Positions 1,745-10,639 of a DNA stretch of 10,639 nucleotides are shown one piece after another; within the stretch, counting starts at the first letter, position 1; every line of letters begins with the position of its first letter. Both the position numbers and the translations under genes were made by a program. Under the pieces are notes generated by a model. It ran no database searches, was not told the DNA's origin, and saw only the letters and a list, made by a program, of their open reading frames with translations. The stretch covers positions 1-10,639 of the forward strand of contig JANPEF010000032.1 of assembly GCA_031431875.1 (NCBI GenBank), read 5' to 3'. The stretch is from Candidatus Eiseniibacteriota bacterium. GTDB taxonomy: Bacteria; Eisenbacteria; RBG-16-71-46; DASYSL01.

Positions 1745-2260
1745 ATGCACCGAACGCTGCGCATTCTGACCGCGCTGGCCGTGACGGTGGCCGGACTGGG
1801 GAGCTGCGCGCTGGCCTTCGCGGAGGGGGACGTCACTGTCGCCCTGACCGCGCACCGCATCATGGTGAGCCAGGGCAAGGAAGCCCGTCTGCCTGCCGAA
1901 CAGGCCAAGCCCGGCGACGTCATCGAATACCGCGCCACCTACACCAACCACGGCGGCTCCGCCGTCCGTGACCTGCAGGCGACGCTCCCCGTTCCGGCCG
2001 GTCTCGAGTACCTGCCGAAGACCGCTTCGCCCGTGAAGCTCCTGGCCAGCCTCGACGGCAAGTCGTTCGCGCCGACGCCTCTGACGCGTCGGGTGAAGCT
2101 CGCGAACGGCAAGACCGAGCTGCGTGAAGTTCCCGCCTCCGAGTACCGCGCGTTGCGCTGGTCCATCGGGGCGCTGGGCGCCAACGCGGATCGCACGGTC
2201 GTCGCGCGCATGCGCGTCGCTCCGCTCGAAACCGTTGCCACCGTCGTCCCTGCGCGCTAG
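1745..2260 (+). CDS. Secreted single-domain DUF11-like (TIGR01451 conserved-repeat-like) protein, 171 aa
   Basis: The likely start is ATG 1745 (strong RBS), not 1562. Sec signal peptide MHRTLRILTALAVTVAGLGSCALAFA|E. DUF11-type motif AKPGDVIEYRATYTNHG...LPVPAGLEYLP, followed by the family-typical SLDGKSF.P.PL and EYRALRW. Confidence 0.85.
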   Translation: MHRTLRILTALAVTVAGLGSCALAFAEGDVTVALTAHRIMVSQGKEARLPAEQAKPGDVIEYRATYTNHGGSAVRDLQATLPVPAGLEYLPKTASPVKLLASLDGKSFAPTPLTRRVKLANGKTELREVPASEYRALRWSIGALGANADRTVVARMRVAPLETVATVVPAR

Positions 2261-2297: not shown

Positions 2298-4892
2298 ATG
2301 ACGCTTCAGCCGACGGTCCGCGCCACGCGCGCGGTCCGAACCGCCCTGTCGTGTGCCGCGGGCCTGCTTGCCGCCGCCACGATCCTTGCCTTCGCCGCCG
2401 ACCGGGCTTTCGCCCAGCCGCCGGTGGGCACGTCGATCGGGAACCAGGCCACGGCCTCGTATCTCGACGCGTCGTCCACGTCGCGCACGGTGACGTCGAA
2501 CCTGGTCACCACCATCGTCCAGCAGGTGGCCGGCTTTACGCTGACCGCCGACGGTGCCGTCGTCGCCGCTCCGGGCGGCCAGGCCGTCTTCCCGCACGTC
2601 CTCACCAACACCGGCAACGGTCCGGATACGTTCCCCCTCACGCTCGTCAACCTGGCGGGCGACGACTTCGACCTGGCCGGACTCGCGATCTATCCCGACG
2701 TCGACGGCAACGGCGTGCCGGACGTCTACGTCCCGCTCGTCACGACCGGGCTCCTGGCCGCCGGGGCGTCGTTCCGCTTTGTGGTCGCGGGCAACGTGCC
2801 GGGGGCGCAGCTCGCGGCCCAGGTGGCGCAGGTGCGGGTCAGCGCGCTCTCGGCGTTCGACAACGCGCAGACGGCGTTCAACACCGACGTCGTCACCGTC
2901 ACCGGCAACGCGGTGCTCAACGTGACCAAGGGCATCGACGTGACCAACGGCGCGTCGCCCTCGGGTCCGCGCACGTACACGATCTCGTACACCAACGCCG
3001 GCAACTCGACGGCGACGAACTTCCGGATCACCGACGTCGTGCCCGCGGGCATGACCTACGTGCCGGGCAGCGGTCGCTGGAGCACCACGGGTGCTGCGGT
3101 CCTCACCGACCTCAACCTCGCCGACGCCCAGGGCGTGGCACCCAACACGGTCATCTACGACTACGGCGTCACCGGTGCGGCGACCGTGACCGCGGTGATC
3201 AACCGCGTGCCGGCCGGTGCCAGCGGAACGCTGACCTTCCAGGTCAACGTCGACGCGGGCCTGGCGCCGCAGACGATCAACAACCTCGGCACGTTCGTCT
3301 ACAACGACGGCGTCGGCCCGGTCGGTCCGTTCACGACCAACGCCGCTCCGTTCACCGTCGACCCGAGCGCGTCGCTCACCTTCGTCGGCCAGGTCATTCC
3401 CTCGGCCACGCAGGGTGCGACCGTCGCGTTCTCGAACGTCCTGACCAACACCGGCAACGACGTCGACGTGTTCGACGTGACGATCGGCGCCGGCACCTTC
3501 CCGGGTGGCACGTCGTACTCGCTGTTCCAGGCGGACGGCGTCACGCCGCTCACCGACTCGGACGGCAACTTCGTCGCCGATACGGGCCCGGTCCTGCCGG
3601 GGGCTTCGGTCACCATCGTGCTGCGTGCCTCGCTGCCGCCGTCGGCGACGGGCGGGCCGTACCAGGTGCAGAAGATCGCCACCTCGCTGAACGACCCCGG
3701 CCAGTCGGCCACCGCGACCGACGTGCTGACCACGATCACGGCCAGCACCGTCGACGTGACGAACAACGCCCCGCTGCCGGGCGGCCTCGGCTTCGGCCCC
3801 GGTCCGGAAGGCGTGGCCCAGGTCACGCTGAACGCCAACCCGGGTGCGACCGTGCGCTTCACGCTGCACGTCAACAACACCAGCACGGTGACGGACAACT
3901 ACGACATGTCGTCGAGCGCGGTTCCGGGCGGCTGGACGGTCGTGTTCCGTGACGCCGGAAACGCGATCCTCACCAACACCGGTCCGATCGCGCCGGGCGG
4001 CAACGCGCTCGTCTACGCCGACGTCACCGTCCCCGCGGGCTACGCGGCGGGCACGGTGAGCGTCAACTTCACCGCCGCATCGTCGGTGTCGGGTGCGGAC
4101 GACACGATCCACGACGCGGTCACGGTCCTGACCGTGCGCAGCCTGCAGCTCATCCCGAACAACTCGGCGCAGGTGATTCCGGGCGGGATCGTGGTCTACA
4201 CGCACCTGCTCACGAACGCCGGAAACGTCGTCGAAGGCGACGGCGTCGGTTCGTTCACGGCCGTGACGGCGGGAAATAACCAGGCGGGCTGGAGCACCGC
4301 GTTGTACTACGACGCTAACCTTTCCGGCGTCTTCGACGCCGGAGACGGGCCGTTCACCGACCTGACCTTCGTCGGCGGCCTGGCTCCGGGTGCGACCGTG
4401 CGCATCTTCGCGCAGGTGTTCGCCCCGGCCGGCGCGGCGCTCGGCCAGGTCAACACGACGACCGTCACCGCCACGACCAGCAACGTCGGCTACGTCTCGG
4501 CCGTCGCCGCTCCGACGTCGGCGTTCGACGTGACCACGGTGATCAACGGGCAGCTTCAGCTCGTCAAGCGCCAGGCGCTCGACGCGAACTGCAACGGAAT
4601 CGCCGACGGTCCGTTCGACGTGATCGACATCACGACCGGCGCGATCCCGGGCGCGTGCCTGCGCTACGAGATCGTCGTCACCAACGTCGGGACCACGACG
4701 GTCACCAACGTGGTGGTCAGTGATGCGACGCCGGCGAACACGACCTACTCGGGCGTGGTCGCAGCGAGCACCTCGCAGGGATCGATCGTCACGCCGGCCA
4801 ACGGCGCGACGGGAATGATCACCGCGACGGTGGGCACGCTCGCACCGGGCCAGTCGGCCACGATCACGGTCGGCATCCGCATCGATCCGTAG
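2298..4892 (+). CDS. Secreted multi-Ig/DUF11 domain protein, 864 aa; candidate major filament subunit
   Basis: ATG 2298 with GGGAG at 2286-2290; signal peptide ending AFA|Q40. The mature protein has an N-terminal hairpin (GTSIGNQATASY...TSNLV), four Ig-like repeats (xFxHxLTNTGN type; ~2520-2900, 3366-3738, 3745-4130, 4134-4545), one complete DUF11 domain (2910-3359) and a C-terminal incomplete DUF11 domain (4551-4889). It is T/V/G/A/N-rich with strongly C/G-ending codons. Confidence 0.9.
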   Translation: MTLQPTVRATRAVRTALSCAAGLLAAATILAFAADRAFAQPPVGTSIGNQATASYLDASSTSRTVTSNLVTTIVQQVAGFTLTADGAVVAAPGGQAVFPHVLTNTGNGPDTFPLTLVNLAGDDFDLAGLAIYPDVDGNGVPDVYVPLVTTGLLAAGASFRFVVAGNVPGAQLAAQVAQVRVSALSAFDNAQTAFNTDVVTVTGNAVLNVTKGIDVTNGASPSGPRTYTISYTNAGNSTATNFRITDVVPAGMTYVPGSGRWSTTGAAVLTDLNLADAQGVAPNTVIYDYGVTGAATVTAVINRVPAGASGTLTFQVNVDAGLAPQTINNLGTFVYNDGVGPVGPFTTNAAPFTVDPSASLTFVGQVIPSATQGATVAFSNVLTNTGNDVDVFDVTIGAGTFPGGTSYSLFQADGVTPLTDSDGNFVADTGPVLPGASVTIVLRASLPPSATGGPYQVQKIATSLNDPGQSATATDVLTTITASTVDVTNNAPLPGGLGFGPGPEGVAQVTLNANPGATVRFTLHVNNTSTVTDNYDMSSSAVPGGWTVVFRDAGNAILTNTGPIAPGGNALVYADVTVPAGYAAGTVSVNFTAASSVSGADDTIHDAVTVLTVRSLQLIPNNSAQVIPGGIVVYTHLLTNAGNVVEGDGVGSFTAVTAGNNQAGWSTALYYDANLSGVFDAGDGPFTDLTFVGGLAPGATVRIFAQVFAPAGAALGQVNTTTVTATTSNVGYVSAVAAPTSAFDVTTVINGQLQLVKRQALDANCNGIADGPFDVIDITTGAIPGACLRYEIVVTNVGTTTVTNVVVSDATPANTTYSGVVAASTSQGSIVTPANGATGMITATVGTLAPGQSATITVGIRIDP

Positions 4893-5001: not shown

Positions 5002-8000
5002 ATGCTCGGACGCGCGCATCGTTCCTTCGGGAGTGGCGACGTTCCGGACCCGCGTTCGCGCGGGGGCCGGGGCGTCGCCGCGCGCGTTTCTGGCGGTCTG
5101 CGGCGTCTTCGCGCGTACGCGCTCGCGGGCGCGCTCGCGTACGCGTACGTGTACGCGCGCGACACCGCGTACGCCGCGCCGCCGATCGGCGGGGCGATCG
5201 ACAACACCGCCACGGGCACCGGGCGCTTCGTCGCCGGCGATGTCCCGTTCACCCAGAACTCGAACACCGTCCGGGCCCGCGTGACCGCTCCGCCGCCGCC
5301 GCCCGTGCTCGCGTTCTTCTCCGGCTCCGACTTCGCGACCGTCGTGCGGTTCGGCGCTCCCGGAGCCCCGCTGCACGTCCAGGCGATCGCCCCGGGCTGC
5401 GACGCCCGGCCCGGCGTGCGCGACACGATCGCGGTCACGATCGCCTCGAGCCGCGCGCTCGACGTCGAGACCGTGGTCGCCATCGAGACCGGCCCGGCGA
5501 CCGGCGTGTTCCGCGTCGAGCCTGCGCTGCCCACGACCGGCGGCACGTTCGGCACGTCGTCGTCGGGCGACCGGATCCTCGCGACGATGCGCGGCGACGT
5601 CGTGACCGCGACGCTGTTCGGCTGCGGCGCGCCGCGCACCGATGCCGTGCTGTGGGTCGAGCCCAGCGGCGTGGTCTTCGCGGCGGTCGGCGGCGCGGTC
5701 GTCCCCGGCGCGCGGATCTCGCTGATCGACGTGACCGGCGCGGGTAACGGCGGCGACGCCGGCGGCCTGGCGCGCGTGTTCCAGCTCGACGGCGTGACTG
5801 TGGCCGCGAATCCGGCTGTGTCGGACGCGACGGGGCGGTTCTCGTTCCCGCTCGCGGCGGCCAGCACGTACCGGCTCGACGTCGTGGCGCCGGGCGGCTG
5901 GGCGTATCCGTCCAGTGTTGCGCCGGGCGCACTGCCGCCGGGGATGCTGGTCGACCCCGCGGGTTCGTACGGCGCTTCGTTCGTCACGACGGACCCGCTG
6001 GGGCCGGTCGTCTTGGACTTGCCGCTCGATCGGCTCGCCGGCGACGCGCTGTTCGTCGAGACCGACGCGCTGCGGCCCGTGGCCGAACTCGGGGATGCGG
6101 TCGACTTCGCGGTGCGCGTCGCGAACCGCACGGCGGGGCCGATCGACTCGATCACCGTCGAGAACAAGACGCCGATCGGGTTTGGATTTGTTTCGGGGAC
6201 TTTGCGAAGGATTGGGACGACGGCGGGCGCTTCGGCGGCCGCGGTGCGGAAGGGCGATGGCCTTCTTGCATCTTCCGGCGCTTCGCGCTCCGCGCTCGCG
6301 GCCGAAGCTCTTGTGCCGCTGCCGGGCGGAGACTCCCGCTCCTTCCGCTTCGCTGTTGGTTCCCTCGCCTCCGGCGAGGTAGCTGAACTCCGCTTCCGCA
6401 CCCGCGTGGGCGCGGGTGCGGTGGACGGCCCGGCCGTGAACCGTGCATGGGCGTTCGCGCCGCCGGCCATCACGTCGAACACCGCGACCGCGGTCGTCGA
6501 GCTCACGGCCGGTCCGTTCGCGATCGAGGGCACGATCCTCGGCACCGTGTTCGTCGACGCCGACGGCGACGGCCGGCCCGGCCGCGGCGAGCCCGCGCTG
6601 CCGGGCGTGCGGCTGTATCTCGACGACGGCACGTACGCGGTGACCGACGCCGACGGGCGCTACAGCCTCTACGGCATCGCGCCGCGCACGCGCGTGCTCA
6701 AGCTCGACGCGACGACGCTGCCGCCGGGAGCGCGCCCCGTGTCGACCGACGCGCGCGATGCGGAGACGCCGGGCCTGCGCTTCGTCGACCTCACGCTCGG
6801 CGATTTCCAGCGCGCCGACTTCGCGATCGCCGCCGACAGCGCGTTGATCGCCGCGTCCGAGGCGCGCCGGGCGGCGCTGGCCAAGACCGGTCGCGGCGAG
6901 CTCGACCGGGCGCTCGTGCGCGGCGCCAACCCGCTCGCGCCCGTGCGGCCCACGCCGGATCCGCGCTCGCTCCCGGCCGAGGGCATCACGACCGGTGAGG
7001 CTCGCCTGCCGCTGTTCGACGGCGCGCCCTCGTCGCTCGCGACGTCGCGCCGCAAGGACGCCGACGAGGGCGACGGCGCGCTCGAGTCGCGCATCGCCAC
7101 GCTCGGACCCGCGCCCGGGTTCGTGGACTTCGCCGCGGTCGACACCGTGGGCGCGACGCAGGTCGACGTGCGGGTGAAGGGCCCGTTCGGCGCGCTGTTC
7201 GGGCTTTCGGTGGGCGGCCAGATCGTGCCCGCGAGCCGCGTCGGCCGCAAGGTATCCTCGCCCGAGGCGAACGCCGAGGCCTGGGAGTTCGTCGGCGTGG
7301 CGCTGAAGCCCGGTACCAACACGCTCGAGCTCACCTCGATCGGCGGCCGCGACGGCGCGGCGACGGTGAACGTGCGCGCGATCGTCGTCGCACCCGATCG
7401 CCCCGCTCGGCTTTCGATCGACGCGCCCGCGCGGGTCGCCGCCGACGGCTTTGCGCCCGCGACGCTGACGCTCGCGCTCACCGACGCCGCCGGCGTGCCG
7501 GTCGCCGCGCGCACGCTGGTCACGCTCGAGGCGTCGCTCGGCCGCCTGCTCGCCGACGACCTCGATCCGACGACCGCGGGCACGCAGCTCGCGCTCGAGG
7601 GCGGGTTCGCGACGGTGGACCTGGCGGGACAGGGCGCGCCGGGTGTGGCCGACCTCACCGCGCGCACCGCTGCCGGGCTCGAGGCGACCGCGCGCGTTTC
7701 ATTGGTGCCGGACCTCCGGCCCACGCTCGCGGTCGGTTCGCTCGAGGGGGTGGTCGCGCTCAGCGGATCTCCGGGCGGCCGCGCGCCGGCCGACGTCCTG
7801 CCCCGGCCGCTGTTCGAGGCCGCGCCGGTCGCGTTCGTGTCGCAGAGCTCCGACGGCGACCAGATGGCGGCGATCCGCGGCTCGGCCTTCTATAAAGGAC
7901 GGGTCAAGGACGACATCCTGCTCACCCTGGGCTACGACTCGGAGCGGGCACCCCACGTCCGCGCGTTCCGCGACATCCAGCCCGACGCGTACTACCCGCT

Positions 8001-10203
8001 CTACGGCGACGCCGCGGTGCGTGGGTTCGAAGCGCAGTCGACGCGGCCGCTGTACGCGCGCGTCGATCGCCGCGGCGCCTCGCTCCTGTACGGCGACTTC
8101 GTGACGCCGGGCATGGGCGGCGGGCGCACGCTCGGCGGCTACAGCCGGAGCTTGAACGGCGTGGTCGGCAGCTACGAGGACGCGCGCGTTCGCTTCGCCG
8201 GCTGGTCGAGCCGCGAGCGCTCCACCCGCCAGGTCGACGAGCTGCGCGGGCGCGGCGTCTCGGGGCCGTACGCGTTGACCATCGCGCCGCTGGTCGACGG
8301 CAGCGAGCGCGTCGAGGTCGTGGTGCGCGACCGCAGCCAGACGGCGGTCGTGCTCTCGGCCGAGTCGCGGCAGCGCTTCGTCGACTACACGATCGACGCG
8401 CTCACCGGCGAGATCCTGCTCAAGGCGCCGCTGCCCAGCGTCGACTCCGACCTGAATCCGGTGTCCCTGCGCGTCACCTACGAGATCGAGGCCGGCGGCG
8501 AGGCCTACTGGACGACCGGGTTCGAGGGCAGCGTGCGCCGCGGTCGCGTGGAAGTCGGTGGCACCTACGTCGACGACCACGATCCGATCGCGGCTGGCTC
8601 GATCCGCAGCGTCTTCGCCGCGGCGAAGACCGGCGCGCGCTCGGGGCTCGAAGCCGAGTTCGCGACCACGCGCGAGAACGCGACCGGCGACAGCGACATC
8701 GGCGGCCGCGTCGAGTGGCGCCACGCCGCGACCGGTGTCGAGGCGCGCCTCTACGCCGGCGCGACCGGCGAGGAGTTCTTCAACCCGACGTCGGGCTACG
8801 GTGCGGGGCGTCTCGAAGGGGGCGGGCGGATGACCGCGGTCTTGAACCCCCGCCTGCGGTTCCATGGCCAGGCGATCTTCACCGGCGACACCAGGGGTGG
8901 CGAGCGGCGCGGCGGCGTGCTCGTCGCCGTCGAGCGGAAGCTGGGCGAGCGCTGGCGCGGCGAGCTGGGCCTGCGCCTGGCCGACGGGCGGACCGGCGAC
9001 AAGGTCGACGAGGACTTCGCGGCACTCGTGCGCGCGCGGGTGCTCTTGAGCGTGCCGTCGGTGCGTGCGCTCGACGCGTACCTCGAGCTCGAGCAGGACA
9101 CGCGGGATTCGGATCGCCGGATGGCGGCGCTGGGTGCGGAAATGCTCCTCATGAAGCGAGTCCGGGCCTACGGCCGCCATGAGTTCATCGGCGGGCGGCT
9201 CGAGCCGTGGGCGCTCACGGGCGCGACCGCGAACCACTCGACCGTCTTCGGAATCGACGCGAACGTCACGCCCGAGGCGCGCGTGTTCAGCGAGTACCGG
9301 GTCGACGGCGCGATCGGCGGCCGCGATGCCGAGGCCGTGATCGGGCTGCGCAATGCGTGGCGCCTGGCGGGCGGCGCGCGTCTGACCGGCTCGCTCGAGC
9401 GCGTGCAGCCGGTGGGCGTGACGCCGGACACGACCGTCGGCTCGATTGCCGACCCGGGCGCCACGTTCGCCATGGCGCTGGGCATCGACTACGCGACGAG
9501 CCCGTGGTGGAAGGGCTCGGCCCGCGCCGAATACCGCACGGGGAAGACCAGCGACGCCGTCCTCGGCACGTTCGCCGGCACGCTGCGCATCGACCGGGCG
9601 TGGAGCGCGCTGGCGCGCAACCACCTGTCGCTGATGCGCGAACACGGCGGCGGTCGCAGCGATCGCGAGCGGCTCCAGATTGGCGTCGCCTACCGGCCCG
9701 GCGACGTGTGGGACGGCGTCGCGCGCTACGAGTTCCGCTGGGACCGCGACGGTGGTGCCGATCCCGCGCCGGGCGAACTGCCCGAGGCCGACCTGCGGCG
9801 CACCGCGCACGTGTTCTCGGCACACGGCACGGGACCGTTGGCGAAGAAGACGACCGGGTCACTGGCGTGGGCCGGCAAGTGGGTGAACGAGCGGACGGAT
9901 GGGATTGCCACCGCGACGTCGGCGCAGTGGGTCCACGGCCGCGCCTCGTGGTCGCTGGGCACGCGCTATGACGCCAGCCTCCTGGCCAGCTTCCTCACCG
10001 GCACGCACAGCCGCCGCGGCGGCGTCGGCGCCGAGCTGGGCCGCCGCCTGGCACCCGGCGTGTGGCTGTCGGCGGGCTACAACCGCTTCGGCTACTCCGA
10101 CGACGAGCTCACGGGCGAGGAGTACACCCGGCAGGGCGTGCATTTGAGGGTGCGGGCGAAGTTCGATGAGAAGCTGCTGGGGCTGGGTGGGGGGGCGAAG
10201 TGA
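5002..10203 (+). CDS. Large outer-membrane protein: N-terminal hairpin, Ig/carboxypeptidase-regulatory-like domains, DUF11, SdrD-B-like, Big-like domain and a large C-terminal beta-barrel (1733 aa from ATG 5002; the ORF track uses TTG 4918)
   Basis: Signal-like region ending AYA|A at ~5175. SdrD-B motif GTILGTVFVDADGDG...EPALPGVRLYL...TDADGRYS at 6526-6725. DUF11-like domain at 6049-6505. Big_1-like ADGFAPATLTLALTDAAGVPV. From ~7870 there are many alternating-hydrophobic strands (AFYKGRVKDDILLTLGYDS, YYPLYGD, LLYGDF, WLSAGYN, GVHLRVRAKF). The start is uncertain, and TTG 4918 lies inside the hairpin. Confidence 0.85.
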   Translation: MLGRAHRSFGSGDVPDPRSRGGRGVAARVSGGLRRLRAYALAGALAYAYVYARDTAYAAPPIGGAIDNTATGTGRFVAGDVPFTQNSNTVRARVTAPPPPPVLAFFSGSDFATVVRFGAPGAPLHVQAIAPGCDARPGVRDTIAVTIASSRALDVETVVAIETGPATGVFRVEPALPTTGGTFGTSSSGDRILATMRGDVVTATLFGCGAPRTDAVLWVEPSGVVFAAVGGAVVPGARISLIDVTGAGNGGDAGGLARVFQLDGVTVAANPAVSDATGRFSFPLAAASTYRLDVVAPGGWAYPSSVAPGALPPGMLVDPAGSYGASFVTTDPLGPVVLDLPLDRLAGDALFVETDALRPVAELGDAVDFAVRVANRTAGPIDSITVENKTPIGFGFVSGTLRRIGTTAGASAAAVRKGDGLLASSGASRSALAAEALVPLPGGDSRSFRFAVGSLASGEVAELRFRTRVGAGAVDGPAVNRAWAFAPPAITSNTATAVVELTAGPFAIEGTILGTVFVDADGDGRPGRGEPALPGVRLYLDDGTYAVTDADGRYSLYGIAPRTRVLKLDATTLPPGARPVSTDARDAETPGLRFVDLTLGDFQRADFAIAADSALIAASEARRAALAKTGRGELDRALVRGANPLAPVRPTPDPRSLPAEGITTGEARLPLFDGAPSSLATSRRKDADEGDGALESRIATLGPAPGFVDFAAVDTVGATQVDVRVKGPFGALFGLSVGGQIVPASRVGRKVSSPEANAEAWEFVGVALKPGTNTLELTSIGGRDGAATVNVRAIVVAPDRPARLSIDAPARVAADGFAPATLTLALTDAAGVPVAARTLVTLEASLGRLLADDLDPTTAGTQLALEGGFATVDLAGQGAPGVADLTARTAAGLEATARVSLVPDLRPTLAVGSLEGVVALSGSPGGRAPADVLPRPLFEAAPVAFVSQSSDGDQMAAIRGSAFYKGRVKDDILLTLGYDSERAPHVRAFRDIQPDAYYPLYGDAAVRGFEAQSTRPLYARVDRRGASLLYGDFVTPGMGGGRTLGGYSRSLNGVVGSYEDARVRFAGWSSRERSTRQVDELRGRGVSGPYALTIAPLVDGSERVEVVVRDRSQTAVVLSAESRQRFVDYTIDALTGEILLKAPLPSVDSDLNPVSLRVTYEIEAGGEAYWTTGFEGSVRRGRVEVGGTYVDDHDPIAAGSIRSVFAAAKTGARSGLEAEFATTRENATGDSDIGGRVEWRHAATGVEARLYAGATGEEFFNPTSGYGAGRLEGGGRMTAVLNPRLRFHGQAIFTGDTRGGERRGGVLVAVERKLGERWRGELGLRLADGRTGDKVDEDFAALVRARVLLSVPSVRALDAYLELEQDTRDSDRRMAALGAEMLLMKRVRAYGRHEFIGGRLEPWALTGATANHSTVFGIDANVTPEARVFSEYRVDGAIGGRDAEAVIGLRNAWRLAGGARLTGSLERVQPVGVTPDTTVGSIADPGATFAMALGIDYATSPWWKGSARAEYRTGKTSDAVLGTFAGTLRIDRAWSALARNHLSLMREHGGGRSDRERLQIGVAYRPGDVWDGVARYEFRWDRDGGADPAPGELPEADLRRTAHVFSAHGTGPLAKKTTGSLAWAGKWVNERTDGIATATSAQWVHGRASWSLGTRYDASLLASFLTGTHSRRGGVGAELGRRLAPGVWLSAGYNRFGYSDDELTGEEYTRQGVHLRVRAKFDEKLLGLGGGAK

Positions 10204-10639
10204 TGCGGCATTTGAGGCCAGGCCTGGTGCTCGCTGCGCTCGCACTGACATTGCTCGCGCTGACATCGAACAGCGCCCGCGCACAAGTCGTGCGCGGGTA
10301 CACGGCCCGGTACAGCACGAATGGAAACGGCGACATCGCTGTCGTCGGCAACACGCTCATGTCCTGCACCGGAGGCGGCAACGGCGCGGGCAGTTGCAAC
10401 CAGGCGCGCGCCGGACCCGGCAATGCGCTGAACAACAACGACTGGAGCATGGTCTACGTCGACGTCGACGGGGACGGCTCGACGATCAACTCCAGTACGG
10501 CAACGCTGGCGTTGCCGGCCGGTGCGACCGTGCTGTGGGCGGGGCTGTACTGGGGTGGATACTCGGCAGGCGCTTCGCGGAATCAGCTCCGCTTCGGCAC
10601 GCCCACCGCCGGTTACGCGACGCTCACCGCAACGCAGCT
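10203..10639 (+). CDS. Secreted adhesin-like protein (DUF3344-like N-terminal domain typical of DUF11 adhesins), 3'-partial
   Basis: Not in the ORF track because it runs off the window. ATG 10203 overlaps the upstream TGA (TGATG). Translation: MRHLRPGLVLAALALTLLALTSNSARA|QVVRGYTARYSTNGNGDIAVVGNTLMSCTGGGNGAGSCNQARAGPGNALNNNDWSMVYVDVDGDGSTINSSTATLALPAGATVLWAGLYWGGYS... The motifs GNTL, NNN.W.M.YVDVD.D..T.NSS.A.L.LP.G..V.WAGLYW are those seen at the N-terminus of large DUF11-repeat surface proteins. Confidence 0.85.
   Translation, partial: MRHLRPGLVLAALALTLLALTSNSARAQVVRGYTARYSTNGNGDIAVVGNTLMSCTGGGNGAGSCNQARAGPGNALNNNDWSMVYVDVDGDGSTINSSTATLALPAGATVLWAGLYWGGYSAGASRNQLRFGTPTAGYATLTATQ

Follow-up and report, generated by a model that had tools for sequence, protein, structure and literature searches.

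A donor hairpin on an Eisenbacteria outer-membrane barrel protein and the truncated DUF11 domain that it may complete

The window analysed here is a contig of 10,639 bases from an uncultured soil bacterium (JANPEF010000032.1, Candidatus Eiseniibacteriota bacterium), in which four genes on the plus strand follow an NHL-repeat gene. The third of these four encodes a protein of 1733 amino acids (aa), here called the barrel protein, which is predicted to end in an outer-membrane β-barrel, and the subject of this work is the short segment with which its mature form begins. Judged from sequence, this segment is a hairpin made of the last two strands of a DUF11 domain, detached by a cut in the loop before them, and the 864-aa protein encoded just upstream ends in a DUF11 domain that stops at this cut. 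We regard it as more probable than not that the barrel hairpin completes a truncated domain of this kind in trans and acts as an anchor. Residues are numbered along the precursors, unless marked as mature.

The locus and its genes

The features of the window are listed below, in the order in which they lie along it.

1-1137, same strand, upstream of the four genes: NHL-repeat six-bladed propeller protein, open at its 5' end (Pfam).
1745..2260, plus strand: small secreted protein of 171 aa with a single DUF11 domain, acceptor-shaped (translation, Pfam/TIGR).
2298..4892, plus strand: 864-aa multi-domain DUF11 protein, a putative fibre or stalk subunit, laid out as signal peptide, donor hairpin, alternating Ig-like domains and truncated C-terminal acceptor domain.
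2415..2519, plus strand: donor hairpin of the 864-aa protein, mature residues 1-35 (Asn49 codon at 2442-2444).
2907-3365: complete internal DUF11 domain of the 864-aa protein (codons of K211, D246 and N329 at 2928, 3033 and 3282).
4521..4889, plus strand: C-terminal acceptor domain of the 864-aa protein, a DUF11/CLIPPER domain without its last two strands (Lys757 codon at 4566-4568, Asp809 at 4722-4724, Cys765 at 4590-4592, Cys787 at 4656-4658).
5002-10203, plus strand: barrel protein, 1733 aa, with its ATG at 5002.
5002..5175, plus strand: start and signal peptide of the barrel protein, with predicted cleavage after AYA.
5176..5283, plus strand: donor hairpin of the barrel protein, residues 59-94 (Asn68 codon at 5203-5205, Ser87-Asn88 at 5260-5265).
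5284..5304, plus strand: T-A-P-P-P-P-P linker of the barrel protein.
5305..7713, plus strand: Ig-like stalk region of the barrel protein, with a domain shared with VCBS proteins, CarboxypepD_reg, a complete DUF11 domain with its own hairpin, SdrD_B and an invasin-D3-like domain (Pfam matches, all under the gathering scores).
7714..10203, plus strand: predicted C-terminal outer-membrane β-barrel, 829 residues and the stop codon.
10200..10637, plus strand: 5' end of a giant adhesin gene, which runs off the end of the contig.

The genes for the small protein, the 864-aa protein and the barrel protein are separated by gaps of 37 and 109 bases, and the barrel and adhesin genes overlap at GTGA, where the adhesin start covers the barrel stop codon. 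A promoter and terminator scan returned no promoter-like site and two terminator-like sites, both inside genes, against a mean of 3.9 in shuffled sequences, and is uninformative on operon structure. The NHL-repeat propeller gene is not conserved beside the operon in related loci.

Donor hairpins and a split DUF11 domain

The mature barrel protein starts at A59 (nucleotide 5176), right after ...AYA, and reads APPIGGAIDNTATGTGRFVAGDVPFTQNSNTVRARV, then TAPPPPP; after its AFA site, the 864-aa protein reads QPPVGTSIGNQATASYLDASSTSRTVTSNLVTTIV. The N-termini and coordinates on which the original prediction was built (A59 at 5176, Asn68 at 5203-5205 and Lys757 at 4566-4568) proved exact upon translation. 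The called start of the barrel protein is supported by its closest homologue, P0004, which shares the start MSGRAHRS..., and in the barrel homologues the motif begins 14-95 residues in, mostly 28-45, directly behind A-x-A sites. Isolated hairpins drew nothing relevant from Pfam, even at E 10. When 43 barrel-family hairpins were compared with the profile of the subunit hairpins by hhalign, they aligned over 38 columns with one 1-residue gap (probability 98.6%, E 6.2e-16), so that the shared motif with a 1-residue insertion, first noticed in the pair of N-termini, is borne out at the level of family profiles. On this comparison, the barrel and subunit hairpin families are homologous.

The conservation of the hairpin among barrel homologues, which had been put forward as a check on the idea, was followed in a set of 106 proteins, the query included, collected with residues 1-500 of the barrel protein as the search sequence. 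Nearly all of those listed read A-P-P-x-G-T-x-I-x-N-x-A ... S-N-x-V-x-x-x-V directly after the signal peptide, and a hidden Markov model (HMM) of the hairpin matches the first 200 residues in 98 of the 106 (i-E <= 0.01). Within these 98 hairpins, the position of Asn68 is occupied by Asn in 90, by Ser in 7 and by Gly in 1, while Ala70 is conserved in 93, Ser87 in 97 and Asn88 in 93. The eight homologues with Ser or Gly in place of Asn68 are P0022, P0030, P0047, P0064, P0085, P0091, P0098 and P0081. The eight proteins without a match comprise two Massilia-type members with a short hairpin, one N-terminally cut sequence, three distant members and two VCBS proteins, which have only the next domain in common with the barrel proteins. 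At the N-terminus, a strict regular expression is matched by 82 of the 106 barrel proteins and by 118 of the 120 subunits, while shuffled N-termini give 24 matches in 2120; internal windows of 170 residues contain it in 48 of 1375 cases, real internal DUF11 hairpins among them.

What stands behind the hairpin differs among these proteins. Here and in at least seven relatives, it is followed by a proline-rich linker and then by a LAF[FY] domain, whereas most other barrel homologues have a TNTGN-type domain behind it, as the 864-aa protein does. The LAFF domain also opens two VCBS proteins (P0101 and P0102) that have no hairpin at all, and the sole recognisable DUF11 domain inside the barrel protein keeps, in translation, a ...VNRAWAF...SNTATAVVEL hairpin of its own. 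Since the hairpin is kept before differing domains, it appears to be independent of its neighbours, which argues against folding in cis, and together with the HMM and motif counts this upholds the view of an independent conserved module at the mature N-terminus. The proposal that the polyproline acts as a spacer is fair but minor, and stands in part only: the last prolines of the linker are the conserved PP-x-LAFY start of the next domain, as seen in the family consensus and in the N-termini of P0004, P0005, P0007 and P0017. That next domain (5305-5650; LAFF...ETGPATGVFRV...), for which Pfam has no family, is the one common to P0101 and P0102, which are VCBS-repeat proteins of 2400-2600 aa.

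The counterpart of the hairpin lies at the other end of the 864-aa protein. Its 120 listed homologues, with 60-87% identity, all end in ...G[IV]RI[DN]P or close variants. The C-terminal 161 residues match Pfam DUF11 (PF01345) with 35.8 bits (cut-off 24.6) at profile positions 16-83 of 114, and the whole protein scores 47.6 bits for DUF11 and 63.4 bits for TIGR01451. Pieces cut from a 58-sequence alignment of the family were compared by hhalign with the complete internal DUF11 domain (mature residues 165-317). The C-terminal domain covers columns 5-117 of its 153 columns (probability 96.6%, E 6.9e-10), and then the protein stops; the subunit hairpin takes columns 118-153 (E 0.005, probability 7%), with N10 on the invariant N290 (both mature), and the barrel-family hairpin takes columns 118-151 (E 0.015, probability 2.9%). 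Both hairpins thus fall in the one register that extends the truncated domain with neither a gap nor an overlap, so that hairpin and C-terminal domain would together amount to one DUF11 domain. The original prediction had the barrel hairpin capture the last domain of the basal subunit, and the exact split at columns 117/118 shows that the hairpin is the piece which this truncated domain lacks. A complete CLIPPER domain is a 7-9-strand sandwich with the Asn on its penultimate strand. As the acceptor domain lacks the Asn strand, which is present only in the N-terminal hairpins, it represents a split form and not a regular member of DUF11. A combined hairpin-plus-TNTGN HMM also matches residues 393-548 and 675-802 of the stop-to-stop open reading frame of the 864-aa protein, which, as far as its sequence goes, looks like a repeat array opened within a DUF11 domain. 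In the AlphaFold2 (AF2) monomer of this protein, the mean predicted local distance difference test (pLDDT) score is 87.0, with 88 for the hairpin, and a Foldseek search with the model returned generic Ig-domain arrays only (ciliary central-apparatus proteins, PrgB, complement and macroglobulins).

The co-fold suggested in the original prediction was run with residues 742-864 of the 864-aa protein (58-row alignment) and residues 59-102 of the barrel protein (44-row alignment), together with three controls. Its interface scores (ipSAE) were 0.59, 0.54 and 0.62 (median 0.59), against 0.00 for the best of the three controls; at least 94% of contacts are shared between the runs, and the partner pLDDT is no lower than 74. 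The hairpin falls to pLDDT 31 once the acceptor is replaced by an unrelated partner, and the acceptor reaches 68-71 with the hairpin replaced versus 80-82 with the hairpin. By calibration, the mark used is reached by 116 of 157 solved complexes and by 2 of 215 mismatched pairs, although at ipSAE 0.60 or under it is reached by only 18 of the 157 solved complexes and by both of the mismatches that pass. The pair stands apart from its controls, and the prediction tool grades it as 'weak support'.

The split also separates residues known to form a bond. DUF11 has been renamed CLIPPER by Costa et al., who report, for a solved CLIPPER domain, an intramolecular Lys715-Asn806 bond with Asp748 as the presumed catalyst (bioRxiv 10.1101/2025.04.25.650565). 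In the 864-aa family, Lys757, Asp809, Cys765 and Cys787 of the acceptor (mature K718, D770, C726 and C748) are invariant in 58 of 58 subunits, as is Asn49 of the hairpin (mature N10; 58 of 58). Asp809 is equated with Asp748 from its spacing and from the way in which the acceptor aligns to the internal domain. In an alignment of 29 acceptor-type C-termini from this locus and ten related loci (135-residue stretches), every one of the 14 subunit acceptors has the Lys, among the 7 adhesin acceptors 4 have it and the remaining three were cut short by the 135-residue limit, and Asp is present in all 21 subunit and adhesin acceptors; every printed donor from the related loci has the Asn. By sequence, then, Asn68 of the barrel hairpin and Lys757 and Asp809 of the acceptor match the Lys-Asp-Asn triad of the solved CLIPPER domain. 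Given that the acceptor keeps Lys and Asp and the hairpin keeps Asn, ligation after insertion suggests itself, and a covalent Lys757-Asn68 amide is a serious possibility that we place a little below the even mark. Such a bond cannot be universal, because 8 of the 98 barrel hairpins lack the Asn. Hence, of the covalent tether originally proposed, the triad residues in acceptor and donor are in place, whereas the bond itself is deduced from them.

Some further observations concern these domains. The complete internal DUF11 domain of the 864-aa protein, in which K211, D246 and N329 are all invariant across the 58-sequence alignment, likely forms an ordinary intramolecular isopeptide bond. In the acceptor domain, Cys765 and Cys787 lie in the long loop after strand A and probably form a disulfide, which, if true, would imply periplasmic folding ahead of export. 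A search of the PDB with the internal DUF11 domain gave a single marginal match, 9ifr_A (E 0.039), a 123-residue 'OmpA-like domain-containing protein' that we suspect to be the CLIPPER structure.

Distribution, partner proteins and the barrel

When species-representative genomes were scanned with the 864-aa protein, 24 loci emerged, in which the components recur in several arrangements. Those Eisenbacteria loci that extend over all four genes keep the order small protein, subunit, barrel protein and giant adhesin, and one delta-proteobacterial metagenome-assembled genome (MAG) has the first three genes in the same order, with no adhesin match found there. Two short subunits, about 330-430 aa long when read from stop to stop, flank the small protein and are followed by the barrel protein in Thalassolituus (including DSM 24913), in Woeseia and in a Thiotrichaceae MAG. 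A Pseudomonadota MAG has the same components as these two-short-subunit variants, a Marinicaulis MAG has a subunit-barrel pair, and a Gemmatimonadaceae MAG has the subunit gene alone, near a contig end. In Thalassolituus a large acceptor-only protein is encoded upstream, and in the Thiotrichaceae and Pseudomonadota MAGs such a protein is encoded downstream. Each subunit opens with the hairpin and ends right after strand E (...FQVTID*, ...QAEIN*), and the large proteins end likewise (...YRVRVQ*, ...FQVRVE*) and have no hairpin. Where listed, donors and Lys+Asp acceptors are present at 2:2 per operon in Eisenbacteria and at 3:3 in Thalassolituus. Within the phylum, the 864-aa protein occurs in 26 of 121 genomes, with one copy each, and in 2 of 17 families (one unpublished genome, G015, included). 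The source names in the list of barrel homologues add Massilia, Polaromonas, Steroidobacteraceae and Limisphaerales. In three loci the barrel gene appears as two overlapping frames (L004 3971-9267, L007 12497-18179 and L014 12569-18137), which may be due to frameshifts or to MAG assembly errors.

The small protein matches DUF11 in Pfam (23.3 bits) and TIGR01451 (29.3 bits) and no other family. It stops after strand E and has no hairpin at either end, and in related loci its gene stands either upstream of the subunit genes or between them. Among its orthologues from Eisenbacteria, the delta-proteobacterial MAG and gammaproteobacteria, all 8 have L, N or Y where the catalytic Asp would be, and strand A has no conserved Lys. 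The protein could be a non-covalent chaperone, cap or primer for hairpins; a chaperone-like role, in which it holds them reversibly, is a tentative suggestion that we would not favour over its denial. Its classification as a lipoprotein was dropped, as the possible lipobox LGSC is not conserved in the orthologues L005 and L015.

Read from stop to stop, the adhesin orthologues are about 1500-3400 aa long; SdrD_B and beta-helix regions occur in them, and their last domain is a Lys+Asp acceptor. The adhesin gene that starts in the window is probably broken over at least three contigs, with its 3' end on C91 and a middle piece on C134: the frame at C91:97902-99974 (minus strand) ends in a Lys+Asp acceptor domain (...GSVTFRVRVQ*), and C134 holds near-identical repeat units. 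Searches of the whole genome with the hairpin and acceptor HMMs found no second donor-bearing gene, and the sole other acceptor-type C-terminus is the one on C91.

The original prediction had held that the barrel protein has no C-terminal acceptor, and this agrees with the AF2 model of its last 829 residues (51-row alignment), which is an all-beta barrel with a mean pLDDT of 81.3, a predicted template modelling (pTM) score of 0.73, 39 strands of at least 8 residues and, at model residues 199-236, a small inserted beta domain. Foldseek matched the model to LptD, Deinococcus SlpA, MtrB, TonB-dependent receptors and FimD, with TM scores of about 0.2; the usher FimD stands at rank 25 (E 5.3e-5). 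With VIA-align, SlpA gave Z 14.3 (root-mean-square deviation, rmsd, 12.1; 405 residues aligned), porins about Z 13, PapC Z 11.6 (rmsd 8.6; 336 aligned) and SprA Z 11.5. All matches of both programs are large outer-membrane barrels. In sequence, a PDB search with the barrel found no match at E <= 1, and Pfam and TIGR hold no curated family for the region, with no usher or autotransporter match. On the model, the C-terminal domain is an outer-membrane barrel of unusual size and, if it is a single barrel, would be among the largest of its kind.

No known barrel family could be assigned. Membership of the ushers was rejected, as there is no match to PF00577 and FimD and PapC are only two among many large barrels; usher barrels have 24 strands, against the 39 long strands of the model. 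A classical autotransporter (type Va) was likewise rejected, with no match to PF03797 and 39 strands against a 12-strand barrel, and so was membership of an LptD-like family, as no barrel family stands out. A distant kinship with any of the three is possible.

The homologue of Thalassolituus maritimus (L020:12652-18492) carries an OmpA domain (PF00691, 53 bits) that separates its Ig region from the barrel, at residues 772-874 of the stop-to-stop frame, and PF00691 is also found in the barrel homologues P0104-P0106. With the OmpA domain in this place, the hairpin junction may lie in the periplasm or inside the pore, and not on the surface, and the stalk may pass through a very wide barrel, which would then also be an export pore.

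A possible exchange-and-lock assembly, its rivals and its relatives

In the proposed mechanism, the barrel hairpin would insert in trans into an incomplete DUF11 domain and complete its fold, that is, act by donor-hairpin complementation. Its acceptor would be the C-terminal domain of the 864-aa protein or perhaps that of the giant adhesin. The polarity of the chain would follow from the distribution of the two elements, each donor hairpin completing the acceptor of a more distal component: the adhesin (acceptor only) would be distal, the 864-aa protein (donor and acceptor) would be in the middle and the barrel protein (donor only) would be proximal. The barrel hairpin would thus end the chain adhesin <- subunit(s) <- barrel and tie its proximal end to the outer membrane. 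Insertion would be followed by spontaneous formation of the Lys757-Asn68 amide, in an 'exchange and lock' sequence, and the small protein, a catcher without the catalytic Asp, would hold hairpins until they are handed over to a covalent acceptor. That the 864-aa protein is the partner of the barrel hairpin, rather than the adhesin, is close to an open choice and falls slightly short of being the favoured answer, while a homopolymeric filament seems unlikely.

Several findings weigh against this picture or against parts of it. BLASTP found no alignment between the two hairpin peptides of the barrel and 864-aa proteins, which counts against this pair when it is taken by itself, and the alignments of the hairpins to the complete domain are weak when taken singly (probabilities of 7% and 2.9%). 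The co-fold carries the low grade given above, and the confident hairpin in the modelled 864-aa monomer leaves closure in cis open to the 864-aa protein. Eight of the 98 barrel hairpins differ where the others have Asn, seven with Ser and one with Gly. The acceptor domain of the adhesin is an alternative partner for the barrel hairpin, and the equal numbers of donors and Lys+Asp acceptors fit a fixed chain at least as well as a polymer. Finally, the peptidoglycan-binding OmpA domain places that part of the Thalassolituus homologue in the periplasm. The core of the anchor idea (donor hairpin, complementary acceptor and barrel as anchor) is supported, with the adhesin as a possible alternative partner, and the filament idea keeps the double equipment of the 864-aa protein in its favour while the donor:acceptor parity suits a fixed adhesin-subunit-barrel chain no less well.

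The closest rival keeps the complementation and changes its partner or product: the barrel hairpin would take the acceptor of the adhesin or the small protein, or the three large proteins would form a fixed hetero-chain, with no polymer and no 'termination'. We give this about one chance in four. It draws on the adhesin orthologues, which end in a Lys+Asp acceptor domain stopping after strand E, on the overlap of the barrel and adhesin genes at GTGA, on the match in number between donors and covalent-type acceptors in the operon types listed, and on the 864-aa gene, of which the 26 positive genomes of the 121 have one copy each. Against it stand the co-fold of the barrel hairpin with the 864-aa acceptor, the only pair co-folded, which passed its controls, the presence of both donor and acceptor in the 864-aa protein, as a polymerising subunit needs, and the near invariance of the 864-aa hairpin across its family.

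Two other explanations dispense with complementation altogether, and both are improbable. The hairpin might fold back in cis onto a domain of the barrel protein itself and be unrelated to the other proteins. As the hairpin and TNTGN arrangement of most homologues is that of the 864-aa protein, the similarity could reflect shared descent of an N-terminal module, and the confidence of the hairpin in the 864-aa monomer points the same way; yet this protein and at least seven relatives keep the hairpin while having no TNTGN domain, P0101 and P0102 have the LAFF domain but no hairpin, the one DUF11 domain that can be recognised in the barrel protein owns its last two strands, the hairpin drops to pLDDT 31 with an unrelated partner, and the C-terminal domains of the neighbouring proteins lack exactly the hairpin piece. 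Marginally less probable still is a sorting or export signal, read by a secretion machine such as the barrel, in place of a structural donor. Such a signal would suit a motif that lies exactly at the mature N-terminus of both exported proteins and is absent from the adhesin, but it leaves the truncated acceptors unexplained, and the motif is in register with the last two strands of a complete DUF11 domain, including the isopeptide Asn, and recurs in the order hairpin-then-TNTGN inside the 864-aa protein. Donor-hairpin complementation in trans is thus the reading that we prefer.

Regarding known systems, the incomplete Ig-like subunits of chaperone-usher pili are made complete by an N-terminal extension of the next, more proximal subunit (PMC11821415, PMC12122975). 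The locus resembles type 1 and P pili in a putative complementation by an N-terminal extension, to which the exact split and the weakly graded co-fold point, in a barrel encoded in the operon (FimD/PapC) and in a dedicated proximal element that would end the chain (FimI, PapH). It differs from them in that the donor is a two-strand DUF11 hairpin, as opposed to a single strand of a pilin fold, in that the chain-ending donor is part of the barrel protein itself and the isopeptide triad is present, and in that the small accessory protein is an acceptor and not a strand donor, that is, of opposite polarity. Pfam found no usher (PF00577) or PapD-like chaperone family in the proteins of the locus. 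With CLIPPER of Costa et al., the split domain shares the Pfam family. The triad of that domain (a Lys on the first strand, an Asp about 35 residues on and an Asn on the penultimate strand) is also present in the complete internal domain of the 864-aa protein; in CLIPPER, however, it lies in one chain and the bond is intramolecular, whereas in the split form the strand with the Asn belongs to a second polypeptide or to the opposite end of the same chain. The available part of their preprint (bioRxiv 10.1101/2025.04.25.650565) describes no split or intermolecular form.

Donor-strand exchange followed by an isopeptide bond has precedents elsewhere. In BsaA of Clostridium perfringens, a member of the TasA family, donor-strand exchange is reported to be followed by an intermolecular isopeptide bond (bioRxiv 10.1101/2024.11.04.621531). 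The likeness lies in an N-terminal segment that enters the sheet of the next subunit and is then fixed by the bond, and the differences lie in the TasA-like fold, the Gram-positive host, the lack of an outer-membrane barrel and a secretion linked to type IV pilus genes. In the three proteins studied here, Pfam finds DUF11-type and related Ig families only, with no TasA-like (peptidase M73/camelysin) fold. For the threads of Sulfolobus acidocaldarius (Saci_0406), donor-strand complementation is reported and intermolecular isopeptide bonds without a sortase are proposed, which link Asp24, through its N-terminal amino group, to Asn57 of subunit n+2 (PMC9715654). Saci_0406 differs in matching no Pfam domain and in its archaeal host, which has no outer membrane.

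Chemically, the nearest analogue is the SpyTag/SpyCatcher pair, reportedly an engineered split of CnaB2 in which a 13-residue single-strand tag carrying Asp ligates spontaneously with a catcher that holds Lys and the catalytic acid; here the split would be natural and CnaA-like, with a 36-residue hairpin carrying Asn. The sortase pili of Gram-positive bacteria are covalent fibres of Ig-like CnaA/CnaB domains as well, their inter-subunit bond being made by a sortase at an LPXTG motif. The C-termini at hand, ...IRIDP or ...RVRVQ, have no LPXTG motif, and those of the 864-aa family (...GIRIDP) show no LPXTG-type sorting motif, hydrophobic stretch or charged tail. A recent preprint, 10.64898/2026.10.17.759780, is said to describe a chaperone-guided donor-strand pathway in a Gram-positive pilus. 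In literature searches, neither split DUF11 domains nor donor hairpins nor this operon turned up, within a scope that did not extend to the supplements of Costa et al., which might list truncated domains.

The system would be a DUF11 form of donor-strand assembly with isopeptide locking, and it could be a distinct assembly pathway. In its full extent, an undescribed fibre pathway of diderm bacteria with 'catcher' C-termini, 'tag' hairpins, Lys-Asn ligation, a barrel of about 39 strands that is both pore and covalent anchor, and a catalytically dead 171-aa chaperone is a speculative proposal that is more probably wrong than right in at least one of its parts. It would turn the whole stalk into one covalent chain and would amount to a natural counterpart of SpyTag/SpyCatcher, coupled to a new usher-like translocon.

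If true, the proposed system would be a further route for the assembly and anchoring of Gram-negative fibres, besides chaperone-usher, type IV, type V and curli, and would join the donor-strand complementation of Gram-negative bacteria with the self-catalysed isopeptide locking of Gram-positive pilins and of a few Gram-positive and archaeal fibres. It would likewise explain why many metagenomic 'DUF11 repeat proteins' end abruptly in the middle of a domain, and would supply natural, orthogonal CnaA-like tag-catcher pairs for protein ligation and surface display. Direct tests are possible in cultured carriers of homologous operons, such as Thalassolituus maritimus DSM 24913 and Massilia strains. 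For the biology of these bacteria, the locus also raises the question of a very large outer-membrane barrel that may pass folded proteins.

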